DNA from: an uncultured delta proteobacterium
Lineage (GTDB): Bacteria > Myxococcota_A > Polyangia > Haliangiales > Haliangiaceae
Assembly (NCBI GenBank): GCA_963764695.1
Contig: CAVXTW010000015.1
Coordinates: 413,845 to 477,844 of the forward strand
Direction of reading: 5' to 3'
DNA: 64,000 nt
The notes under the pieces are model-generated. The model made no database searches. It saw only the letters and a program-made list of their open reading frames with translations, and had not been told where the DNA came from. A program made the translations under genes and the position numbers. Positions 4,770 to 7,096 of this stretch are shown piece after piece. How positions within the stretch are numbered: position 1 is the first letter of the stretch; each line of letters starts with the position of its first letter.

Positions 4770-5771
4770 TCAGGCGGGGCTGTCGGCGCTCGCGGCCACG
4801 CCGAGGCGCTCGCGCAGCCGGGCCACGCGCTCGACCATGACCGCGCGCGCCTCGGGCGGATCCAGGATCCAGGCGTGGCTGCCGAAGCCGAGCACCCAGC
4901 CGGTGATCCACTCGAAGCTCTCGGTGTCGATCGCGATCTCCGAGCTGCCGTCGTCGAAGGTCTGCACCTCGCCGACCGGCCAGGCCGCCCCGACCTTCGC
5001 GGTGGCGAGCGGATCGAGATGGACGCGCACGGTGATCGCGTCGGCCGGCGGCAGGTAGAGGCGCTCGCGGCGATAGGTCTCGAGATCGAAATCGGCCGGG
5101 ATGTCGAAGCGCCGGTCGGTCGGCTGCAGCGCCGAGATGCGATCGATGCGGAAGGTGCGGGTGTCGCCGCGCACGTGGCAGTGACCGACCAGATACCACT
5201 CGCCCGCGTGGTGCACCAGGCCGTACGGGTCGACCATGCGGCGCACGGCGCCCGGGCGCGACGCGGCGGCGTAGTCGAACTCGACGGCGCGTCGCTTGCG
5301 GGCGGCGGTGACCAGATCGCGCAGGTGGCTGGCCACGGCGCGGTCCGGCTCGGCCACGACGGTGCCTGTCGCCAGCGTCTCGGCCTCGCGCGCGTCGTGG
5401 CCGAGCGCGCGCAGGAGCTTGCCCTCGGCCGACCCGAGCGCGTCGTCGAACGGCGCGATGCCGCTCTCGCGCAGGGTGCGGATGCCGAGCAGAAGCGAGC
5501 AGCCCTCGGCCGGGGTGAGGCGGAGCGGTCGGGTCAGGCGCTGGGCCAGGTCGACGAACACGCGCCCGTCCTCGACCGAGACCAGGAGATATTCGCCGGG
5601 ATCGCCGTCGGGCGGACCGACTCCGGCGAGCAGATCGAGGTCCTGCACCATCTGATCGCGCTCGATGCCGAGCAGGCGGGCCAGCTCGCCGACGTCGACC
5701 CCCTCGGACTGGCGGGCCACGTACGGCACCAGATAGAGCAGGCGGCGCAGACGCTGCGAGACGTCTCTCAT
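4770..5771 (-). CDS. WYL-domain transcriptional regulator (HTH-WYL-WCX architecture, PafB/PafC-like)
   Basis: Translation MRDVSQRLRRLLYLVPYVARQ...GEWYLVGHCHVRGDTRTFRIDRI (WYL core). The ATG at 5771 overlaps the stop of the upstream WYL gene (ATGA). Confidence 0.8.
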   Translation of the reverse strand: MRDVSQRLRRLLYLVPYVARQSEGVDVGELARLLGIERDQMVQDLDLLAGVGPPDGDPGEYLLVSVEDGRVFVDLAQRLTRPLRLTPAEGCSLLLGIRTLRESGIAPFDDALGSAEGKLLRALGHDAREAETLATGTVVAEPDRAVASHLRDLVTAARKRRAVEFDYAAASRPGAVRRMVDPYGLVHHAGEWYLVGHCHVRGDTRTFRIDRISALQPTDRRFDIPADFDLETYRRERLYLPPADAITVRVHLDPLATAKVGAAWPVGEVQTFDDGSSEIAIDTESFEWITGWVLGFGSHAWILDPPEARAVMVERVARLRERLGVAASADSPA

Positions 5772-7096
5772 GGCCGGTACTGCTCCGCCACCGACGCGAG
5801 CTCGCTCTGCAGTCGGTTGAGCAGGCGCGGCCCGGACAGCACGCGGATGGCGCCCTTGGCGGCCAGGATGCGCGACACCGCGAAGTCCGGGTTGCCGCAG
5901 GCGAAGCGCAGCCGCACCGAGCCGTCGGCGCCCGGCGTGCGCACCGCCTCGGACCCGAAATCCTCGTTGGCCACGGCGGCCGCCTCGGCGCCGATGTCCA
6001 GCTCGACCTCCTCGACCGTGCTGGAGACGAAGGTCCAGGGCGATCGGTTGGCGTAGGCGCGCACGTCGAAGTTGGCGGGGCGCTCGAAGTCGGCCGTCTT
6101 GGGCTTGGGCGCGACCGCGAGATCGCTCATCCGGTCGAGACGGAACGAGCGCACGTCGTGGCGCAGGTGACAGTGGCCGACCAGGAGCCAGCTGCCCTCG
6201 CGATAGAACAGGCCGTACGGATCGACGTCGCGCGTGCGGGCGTAGCCGGTCGATGCGGGGCGGTAGCGGAAGGTCACCCGCTTGCGGTTGCGGGTGGCGG
6301 ACTCGAGATCGGCGAAGCGCTCGCCCAGCTCGCGGGTCTGCCGGCCCTGCAGCGCCGGAAAGTGGACCAGGACCGGCTCGCGCCGGGTCACCGCGCTGGG
6401 CGGCGGCGGCCACTCGAGCGGCGTGTCGGGCGCCTCCGGCACGTCGAAGGCGAGCTTCTTGAGCGCCAGGTCGACCACGCGCGCGTAGTCGTCGCCCGGC
6501 ACCGCGCGCGCCACCGACGAGGCCAGCACCAGCGCGGAGACCTCCTCCGGCGTGAGGTGCACCTCGGGCAGGCGGAAGCGCTTGAGGTCGACCACGTAGC
6601 CGCCCTCCTCGAGGGAGTCGTCCTCGTCCGGTGTGATGTAGCGGATCGGGACGCCCAGCTCGAGCAGGTCGGCCTTGTCGCGCTCGAACGCGCGCAGGCC
6701 GGCCTCGATGTTGGCGGTCTGGTAGGAGTCGAACTGCTCGCGGATGTCGCGGAAGGTGACCGGCGTGCGCGCGCGCAGGAGCAGCATCACCAGATCGAGC
6801 AGCCGCTTGGAACGATCGATGCGGGGCGCGGCGGACGACGCGCCCGACCGCGCGCGGCGGCCGCCCTCTCGCTTCCTCGGGCGGCCTGCCCGGCCGGCGG
6901 GGTCGTGGCCGCGGGCGCCGTTGCTCGCGCTCGCGCCTGCGGTGTCGCGCTTCGATGCTCGCCGGCCGCTCGCCCCGTTGCTCGACTGCGCGCGATCGCC
7001 GGCGGCGACGGGGACGCGGGCCCGCGCGTCGCGTCCGGCGGAGGCGCGCTTCCGTGTCTTTGTCAACTTGGCCACGATCTTCTTCGAGCCCCCCAT
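5768..7096 (-). CDS. WYL-domain transcriptional regulator (second of a tandem pair) with an ~95-aa Arg/Lys-rich N-terminal extension
   Basis: RSKRLLDLVMLLLRARTPVTFRDIREQF (HTH) ... GSWLLVGHCHLRHDVRSFRLDRM (WYL). It is translationally coupled to the downstream WYL gene. Confidence 0.8.
   Translation of the reverse strand: MGGSKKIVAKLTKTRKRASAGRDARARVPVAAGDRAQSSNGASGRRASKRDTAGASASNGARGHDPAGRAGRPRKREGGRRARSGASSAAPRIDRSKRLLDLVMLLLRARTPVTFRDIREQFDSYQTANIEAGLRAFERDKADLLELGVPIRYITPDEDDSLEEGGYVVDLKRFRLPEVHLTPEEVSALVLASSVARAVPGDDYARVVDLALKKLAFDVPEAPDTPLEWPPPPSAVTRREPVLVHFPALQGRQTRELGERFADLESATRNRKRVTFRYRPASTGYARTRDVDPYGLFYREGSWLLVGHCHLRHDVRSFRLDRMSDLAVAPKPKTADFERPANFDVRAYANRSPWTFVSSTVEEVELDIGAEAAAVANEDFGSEAVRTPGADGSVRLRFACGNPDFAVSRILAAKGAIRVLSGPRLLNRLQSELASVAEQYRP

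Follow-up and report, generated by a model that had tools for sequence, protein, structure and literature searches.

Introduction

Transcription regulators that join a winged helix-turn-helix (wHTH) to a WYL and a WCX domain are widely distributed (PMC6789036). PafBC of Mycobacterium smegmatis and Arthrobacter aurescens (PDB 7P5X, 9FND, 6SJ9) consists of two paralogous chains of this type, encoded in the order B then C, and is understood mechanistically in Actinobacteria only, where it is tied to the Pup-proteasome locus. Promoters under PafBC control combine a -26 element (tGTCgg) with a -10 and have no -35. Within that -26 element the helix-turn-helix (HTH) of PafB recognises the GTC core through E42, A43, R46 and R50 together with backbone contacts (PMC8635444), whilst arginines in the WYL domains of both PafB and PafC bind single-stranded DNA (ssDNA), and an alanine mutant of PafB Y196 loses ssDNA binding in vitro (PMC11804915). 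Here we describe a gene pair, which we refer to as B and C, found in a 64,000-nucleotide stretch of DNA (the window) from an uncultured delta proteobacterium of the phylum Myxococcota (contig CAVXTW010000015.1, positions 413,845 to 477,844), and compare it with PafBC and its relatives.

Two further groups of described regulators are close enough to require comparison. DriD of Caulobacter crescentus (PDB 8TP8, 9PFQ) is an ssDNA-switched wHTH-WYL-WCX activator, encoded by a single gene and acting as a homodimer on a palindromic-type site. BrxR and CapW (PDB 7T8K, 7QFZ, 7TB5/6, 9C5G) belong to the same three-domain fold family and are defence-island repressors, single genes whose homodimeric products are encoded beside BREX or CBASS systems. 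Within the phylum of the window, an adjacent pair of wHTH-WYL genes resembling PafB and PafC, MXAN_1359/1360 of Myxococcus xanthus, is induced by mitomycin C (a rise of 1.5-1.7 log2) and goes up by 3.4 log2 when lexA is deleted; the pair was noted in 2025, and its genes 'were not investigated further' as LexA-dependent (PMC12288472). Our literature search found no further mention of it beyond that paper.

Our preferred reading, to which we give a probability of roughly 0.55, is that the products of B and C pair as a heterodimeric WYL transcription factor of the PafBC type, activated by ssDNA.

Results

Structure of the gene pair

Both genes lie on the minus strand, gene B at 5768-7096 (442 amino acids, ATG start) followed by gene C at 4770-5771 (333 amino acids), and the sequence reads directly that the TGA stop of B and the ATG start of C share the four bases ATGA at 5771-5768, an arrangement that indicates translational coupling. 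The G+C content of the window is 66-74%. In B, a basic N-terminal tail (residues 1-92, 6821-7096) precedes a winged HTH (residues 93-170, 6587-6820), a WYL domain (residues 261-327, 6116-6316; Pfam 1.2e-22) and a WCX domain (residues 361-435, 5792-6016; Pfam 3.4e-6, 27.8 bits against a cut-off of 23.9, with strands and helices in the structural model). In C, an HTH_PafC domain (residues 6-119, 5415-5756; Pfam 2.1e-25) is followed by a WYL domain with a true W-Y-L motif (residues 149-216, 5124-5327; 8.6e-25) and a WCX domain (residues 245-319, 4815-5039; 6.7e-13). The two proteins are paralogues, sharing ~28-35% identity over the WYL region. NCBIfam held no model for either of them, and PADLOC returned generic WYL models only.

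The HTH of B was undetected in the Pfam search of that protein and was shown by alignment instead, residues 93-195 matching residues 5-106 of M. smegmatis PafB (36.7 bits, independent E-value 2e-8). An AlphaFold model of B, built with 17 homologues, places helices at 92-108, 115-121 and 130-146 and wing strands at 151-154 and 166-169, with the third helix as the recognition helix; past the HTH it contains a WYL barrel at 274-328 and a WCX domain at 362-439. An earlier reading of this DNA made from its letters alone (the sequence-only reading) had described two HTH-WYL-WCX proteins head-to-tail with an ATGA overlap, and both the exact coordinates and the domains are confirmed here.

B corresponds to PafB and C to PafC

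We compared B and C each against all PDB sequences, and the model of B against known folds with Foldseek. B matched the fused A. aurescens PafBC at 3.1e-27, in its N-terminal half, and M. smegmatis PafB at 3.6e-21, with PafC far behind at 1.5e-3. C matched PafC (7p5x_AX) at 1.4e-23 and PafB at 5.7e-15, and aligned to the C-terminal half of the fused A. aurescens protein (residues 346-646) with 89 bits against 50 bits for the N-terminal half. The PafC-specific HTH profile (PF19187) gave 89.3 bits for C and 16.6 bits for B, the latter under the cut-off of 32. Foldseek ranked the model of B closest to PafB (9fnd_X, 2.5e-16), then to A. aurescens PafBC (7e-15), DriD (1.3e-14), PafC (3.7e-11), and CapW and BrxR (~1e-7). 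At the level of the whole protein, PafB is therefore the counterpart of B and PafC that of C, whose PafC-specific signal comes mainly from its HTH. Many homologues of B already carry the JGI label 'proteasome accessory factor B'.

The sequence-only reading had likened the pair to the PafB/PafC arrangement and had also drawn attention to BrxR and CapW. The first comparison holds. The second is far weaker: C matched BrxR and CapW at 7e-5 and 1e-3, and in place of a single gene there are two asymmetric genes here, with no defence genes adjoining. DriD is closer, with a sequence match to B of 6.8e-12, which is still weaker than the similarity of B and C to PafB or PafC, and the window differs from it in having an obligate pair of asymmetric chains with a PafC-type acidic HTH on the second. 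With PafBC the pair shares the two paralogous wHTH-WYL-WCX chains in the same order, the PafC-specific HTH in C, a recognition helix in B identical at the DNA-reading positions, WYL arginines in both chains and the occurrence of fused forms among relatives. It differs in an overall identity of just ~24-25%, in its position without pafA or a Pup-proteasome operon around it, in the basic disordered tail on B, in several residues considered in the Discussion, and in its host, a Gram-negative myxobacterium with another housekeeping sigma factor.

Functional residues of PafBC in the window pair

Functionally tested residues of PafBC (PMC8635444, PMC11804915) were mapped onto B and C via HMMER alignments. 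Eleven residues of PafB are listed as contacting DNA or, through the wing, RNA polymerase (K5, R8, S40, E42, A43, R46, R50, K52, R56, W70 and Y76; PMC8635444), and 8 of the 11 are kept in B and invariant in 17 homologues: K5 corresponds to R95 and R8 to R98, both counted as kept, and E42, A43, R46, R50, K52 and Y76 correspond to E131, A132, R135, R139, K141 and Y167. The three that are not kept are S40 (N129), R56 (L145) and W70 (D159). In the recognition helix, EAGLRAFERDK of B stands against EAFSRMFERDK of PafB; E-A-x-x-R-x-F-E-R-D-K is common to both, and E42, A43, R46 and R50, which PafB uses on the GTC core, all have their counterparts in B.

The ligand-binding side is conserved as well. 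The ssDNA-binding arginines R181, R204, R208, R211 and R214 of PafB correspond to R289, R312, R316, R319 and R322 of B, all five being invariant in our alignment (A1), whilst R201 and R204 of PafC correspond to R208 and R211 of C, which also retains W-Y-L. The HTH of C is acidic, as is that of PafC: residues 1-80 have an isoelectric point (pI) of 4.5, and helix 3 reads GIERDQMVQDLDLL. On this mapping the DNA-reading and ligand-binding parts of the pair are conserved and the two specific mycobacterial polymerase contacts are lost.

Linkage and natural fusion of B and C

Homologues of B are numerous, 940 being found at E<=1e-10 among the candidates scored in a metagenome-scale collection, many of them 65-94% identical, and a protein identical to B is present in public data on a 509,682-bp contig (P0001). 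A scan of species-representative genomes yielded 80 loci, most of them labelled as Kofleriaceae, Haliangiales or Myxococcota metagenome-assembled genomes (MAGs) and a few bearing other labels. C follows B in 78 of the 80, with an estimated gap between the B stop and the C start of -11 to +169 nucleotides (nt) and 19 overlaps; the two exceptions are a contig that ends within B (L023) and a locus with ~500 nt past B without a match to C (L071). Because it recurs in 78 of 80 related loci, the arrangement of B followed by C is far beyond chance.

A more distant profile search reached proteins of Archangium, Hyalangium and Myxococcaceae. In the complete genome of Archangium violaceum (L081) a 339-amino-acid B-like gene overlaps by four bases a 307-amino-acid gene with HTH_PafC, WYL and WCX domains, the two sharing 34% (B) and 38% (C) identity with the window pair. 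Fused forms of ~700 amino acids occur among the 50%-identity cluster representatives, and one, P0160 (NOZ84918.1, from a deltaproteobacterial MAG), is a fusion of a B-like N-terminal half and a C-like C-terminal half, C aligning to its C-terminal half with 112 bits and to its N-terminal half with 65 bits. The obligate linkage, the overlapping codons and the natural fusion together argue that the two chains work together. The heterodimer proposed by the sequence-only reading is consistent with this operon structure and translational coupling.

A second apparent fusion, P0122 (729 amino acids), was rejected, its alignment drifting into frameshift-like junk that is probably an artefact of gene calling. 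In the closest relative of the window (L007), recD2, the neighbouring SDR gene, B and C are likewise split into adjacent tblastn pieces, which, as with P0122, resembles MAG indel errors rather than biology.

The basic N-terminal tail of B

No in-frame start codon exists in B between codon 11 and codon 102, and relatives share the opening residues, MGGSKKIVAK(S/L)TKTRKR, at the protein level; the tail is therefore translated. Its 92 residues include 25 lysines and arginines (27%) and 5 aspartates and glutamates, with no aromatics and a pI of 12.0, and it is predicted to be disordered, with a predicted local distance difference test (pLDDT) score of 31-39 and no secondary structure in the AlphaFold model. 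Just the first ~30 residues of the tail align among relatives, its length being variable, and a GRPRKR stretch within it is AT-hook-like yet not conserved.

The sequence-only reading had called this an unusual Arg/Lys-rich extension of ~95 amino acids. The extension is real, at 92 amino acids, and it is not unusual: every Kofleriaceae homologue has a K/R-rich tail (median 35 amino acids, median K+R 26%) before an invariant RGDRSKRLLDLV, with the longest tails, of 93-176 amino acids, in the clade of the window. The B-like protein of Archangium and the distant B-like proteins that we fetched begin at the HTH or within ~20 residues of it. The tail is therefore a trait of the Kofleriaceae family that has been expanded in the lineage of the window, not an oddity of this gene. 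Myxobacterial CarD proteins have basic DNA-binding tails like those of HMGA or histone H1, which makes a non-specific DNA-anchoring role of the B tail plausible.

Promoter and transcript

A putative -10 element, TAAGAT (7106-7111, minus strand), lies 9 nt upstream of the ATG of B, and hexamer and distance alike are shared by the four closest loci (the window and three relatives), in which neither a -35 element nor a Shine-Dalgarno sequence was seen at the start of B; a consensus scan of 4500-7400 gave no full sigma-70 promoter. Another 32 loci share a conserved promoter, GCTTCCGA-17/18 nt-TAGAAC, with an in-frame start codon 5-7 nt past the -10 in 30 of them (28 GTG, 2 ATG), a layout characteristic of leaderless mRNAs. 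With neither a -35 element nor a Shine-Dalgarno sequence in the window, a leaderless or near-leaderless mRNA is implied, and the B-C transcript appears to be leaderless. A possible second promoter further upstream, TTGCGG-17 nt-TAATGG (7162-7190, minus strand), was noticed by inspection and is of low confidence, its hexamers and spacing being present in the window, L007 and L001, and not in L023.

We also rejected the idea that the pair regulates itself through a -26 element of the PafBC type in the B promoter, as no GTC stands at the expected position, where the conserved bases are G(A/G)CGG. In six loci (L025, L026, L048, L060, L070 and L080), all of one sub-clade and in no other, a conserved GTCCGG-A-GTCCGG-TTG stands ~45-60 nt ahead of the B-gene -10. 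This direct tandem repeat of GTCCGG resembles the tGTCgg core of the mycobacterial PafBC site, though at ~-57 and not at -26, and may be an autoregulatory site in that sub-clade.

Relation to LexA in myxobacteria

The rise of MXAN_1359/1360 in the lexA deletion makes the abundance of that pair LexA-dependent. A site in Archangium made up of two GTTCAG repeats (CTGCTCAGCCGTTCAGC, aaaaag, CTGTTCAGG; 5852-5885 of L081), ~150 nt ahead of the B-like gene, differs from the LexA box of M. xanthus at 2 positions. It is the sole such match in 13 kb, yet one or more matches arose in 62 of 200 shuffles, and the agreement of the site with the LexA dependence reported for MXAN_1359/1360 is therefore suggestive only. 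The window differs in this respect: the M. xanthus box (CTRHAMRYBYGTTCAGS, 3 mismatches) gave 9 matches in it against 19 expected, none near B, although the consensus may not be that of Kofleriaceae. The Myxococcia B protein also differs from that of the window in starting directly at the HTH (MDRTERLLDLV), with no basic tail, and the Archangium pair is otherwise alike in gene order, four-base overlap and HTH_PafC on the second gene. The description of the window pair as LexA-independent in the sequence-only reading is thus unproven.

The neighbourhood of the pair

The flanks of the pair encode RecD2, an SDR, an enoyl-CoA hydratase and an OMP-like protein, and the scanned ORFs (open reading frames), which span most but not all of the window, have ordinary chromosomal functions. 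The OMP-like gene (7308-7823, plus strand) encodes a signal-peptide protein of 171 amino acids ending in GARYYF that resembles an 8-stranded outer-membrane barrel and has no match in Pfam, NCBIfam or PADLOC. It lies between B and recD2, converging on recD2 and diverging from B across a shared intergenic region of 211 bp. In 62 of the 80 loci a homologue lies in the ~8 kb upstream of B, on the same strand in 41 and divergent in 21, at varying distances.

It had been suggested that the pair forms a damage-response circuit with recD2, radC and a paired CTGT/ACAG palindrome at 12.2 kb. All three features exist, and none of them could be tied to the pair. RecD2 (7814-10030, minus strand; TIGR01448, 836 bits against a cut-off of 500) follows the SDR gene by ~5 nt and probably belongs to an ech-g129-sdr-recD2 unit; it is upstream of the pair in 9 of the 80 loci only, and its orientation together with this synteny led us to reject it as an operon partner. 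RadC (14481-15386, plus strand), which had been placed ~8 kb away, is merely 7.4 kb off, across unrelated genes that include a kinase. The palindromes are the two ends of a ~135-bp insertion (12205-12345) between the stop of a Ser/Thr kinase gene and the start of the enoyl-CoA hydratase gene, and this insertion is missing from the closest relatives, L007 and L023. Its end hairpins share the 10-mer CTACTGTGTC, reading AGCACTACTGT-gtcga-ACAGTAGTGCT and CTACTGTGTC-tct-GACACAGTA, and the 9-mer TACTGTGTC has exact matches inside the insertion only. A search for ACTGT-N3-13-ACAGT in 1.06 Mb of related loci gave one unrelated match. As the palindromes occur in an insertion that the closest relatives lack, and nowhere else in the window, they were rejected as a shared operator. 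The insertion itself, of which the window holds a sole copy, looks like a small element of the MITE (miniature inverted-repeat transposable element) or REP (repetitive extragenic palindromic) kind.

The sequence-only reading had also pointed out that WYL proteins elsewhere, such as BrxR and CapW, gate defence systems. No defence system adjoins the pair, PADLOC giving generic WYL, RecD-like and kinase matches only.

Downstream of C, three genes (4350-4751, plus strand; 2423-4402 and 1152-2504, minus strand) have no informative family match, apart from a weak CarboxypepD_reg match in the last. Homologues of the 133-amino-acid gene at 4350-4751 are found downstream of the pair in 20 of the 80 loci, and most of these 20 loci contain the other two genes as well. 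Genes for an FHA-domain protein, a PLD-family protein and a Ser/Thr kinase come after the pair, in the same orientation, in Archangium (7950-13020 of L081), and in L020 and L074 a kinase gene comes directly after C, which may be chance, kinases being so numerous in the phylum.

Discussion

Considered in its parts, the preferred reading is of uneven strength. On sequence grounds B and C very probably make a heterodimeric WYL transcription factor, and ssDNA is a likely ligand; that the pair runs a DNA-damage regulon is an evenly balanced proposition, and sigma adaptation in the mycobacterial sense is doubtful, because neither W70 of PafB nor D62 of PafC is kept. If the reading is correct, the pair would work as follows. 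A bicistronic, translationally coupled and probably leaderless operon would supply both chains, B reading DNA via its winged HTH with the residues that PafB uses, and C contributing an acidic, non-DNA-reading HTH_PafC that would dock on a protein partner (region 4 of sigma in PafBC). ssDNA produced by damage would bind an arginine-lined groove across both WYL domains and switch the dimer on, and the switched-on dimer would activate promoters of repair and damage-tolerance genes, with the Lys/Arg-rich disordered tail of B adding non-specific affinity for DNA.

Several results weigh against this reading. The wing-tip tryptophan of PafB, W70, which inserts into a sigma-3/beta-flap pocket, is replaced by D159 in a conserved acidic wing (PDEDDSLEEGG); Y196, the tyrosine of the WYL motif of PafB, is L304 in B, giving W-L-L, and a threonine in the B protein of Archangium; and D62 of PafC, which contacts sigma region 4, is L63 in C. 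The homodimeric DriD is nearly as close to B in fold as PafB, and the model on which that comparison was made is moderately confident, with a domain pLDDT of ~70-88, a mean of 61 and a predicted template-modelling score (pTM) of 0.32. Searches with the mycobacterial promoter motif, which covered the 64-kb window, pointed to no target promoter: allowing up to 2 mismatches, TGTCRGTG-N8-TANNNT occurred 11 times where 7 were expected, and TGTC-N11-13-TANNNT occurred once where 1.6 were expected, with no enrichment. That one exact match falls inside a small coiled-coil ORF (63747-63930, minus strand), presumably of the DUF465/YdcH type from its appearance, and is therefore coding sequence of the opposite strand and not a promoter. 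The window pair is probably orthologous to MXAN_1359/1360, a relationship that runs via the Archangium pair and is unverified by sequence, the genome scan having given Kofleriaceae-type loci only and the profile search no record named M. xanthus. No Pup ligase, proteasome or defence island was found among the scanned ORFs, which speaks against any Pup-proteasome link; the association with that locus is actinobacterial context rather than mechanism. Because W70, D62, Y196 and the proteasome context are all without a counterpart here, we describe the pair as working like PafBC and not as PafBC itself.

The alternatives differ in which of these results they take up. If the pair were a ligand-released repressor in the manner of CapW and BrxR, its target would be its own operon or the neighbouring OMP-like gene instead of a genome-wide repair regulon. 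ssDNA-sensing WYL repressors are established in CapW (PMC11662680), an OMP-like homologue recurs upstream of B in most loci and is divergent from it over 211 bp in the window, and the window held no PafBC-type target promoters. We nevertheless regard such a repressor as improbable: the orientation of the OMP-like gene is inconsistent and its distance from B variable, CapW and BrxR are single-gene homodimers beside defence operons of which there are none here, their similarity to the pair in sequence and in fold is much weaker than that of PafB, PafC and DriD, and an asymmetric pair of HTHs, a basic reader in B and an acidic one in C, suits an activator of the adaptor type. The pair might instead be a real heterodimer that answers to another ligand, such as RNA or a nucleotide second messenger, in a process unrelated to DNA damage. 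The ligands of WYL domains do vary, one being c-di-GMP in a Lactiplantibacillus regulator (PMC11880434), the tyrosine of the WYL motif is lost from B, and the operon contains no repair gene. All of the arginines with which PafB and PafC contact ssDNA are kept and invariant, however, mitomycin C and loss of LexA both elicit a response of the M. xanthus pair, and PafBC and DriD, which by sequence and fold are the nearest characterised relatives, each regulate the damage response when activated by ssDNA, so we hold a different ligand to be unlikely.

The heterodimer itself would fall if B and C were two independent homodimeric WYL regulators, adjacent merely through tandem duplication. Their paralogy across the WYL region and the closeness in fold of homodimers of the DriD type would suit such an origin, but their linkage holds in 78 of 80 loci and in two classes of the phylum, often with overlapping codons, a natural fusion of the two exists, and C has the PafC-specific acidic HTH that does not read DNA in PafBC; independence is very unlikely on this evidence.

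Part of this picture is already known: the domain architecture is widespread, the PafB naming of B homologues exists at JGI, and the M. xanthus pair has been in print since 2025. What is added here is the residue-by-residue correspondence of what is kept and what is lost, the obligate pairing across the phylum, the natural fusion, the basic tail specific to Kofleriaceae, a probable leaderless promoter, and the removal of the supposed links to recD2, RadC and the palindromes. A more ambitious proposal, which we think has a low chance of being right, is that in myxobacteria an adaptor of the PafBC type works on a Gram-negative sigma-70 polymerase with a re-engineered interface, the acidic wing taking the place of the tryptophan at the beta-flap, that the Kofleriaceae tail gives extra DNA contacts in the manner of histone H1 or an AT-hook, and that the pair adds a second tier to the damage response, its level set by LexA and its activity by ssDNA. 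If true, this second tier would explain part of the damage-inducible gene set without LexA boxes that is known in the phylum.

The pair is a credible yet unsurprising candidate damage regulator conserved across myxobacteria. Its two-chain design, with an intact DNA-reading helix and ssDNA arginines, is conserved across Myxococcota without the Pup-proteasome context and with different polymerase-contact residues, which makes it a natural comparison for asking which contacts of PafBC are needed for sigma adaptation. Its practical value lies in a small set of residues open to testing and a tractable target for knockout rather than in a new principle, and it offers a concrete candidate for a poorly explained part of the myxobacterial damage response.

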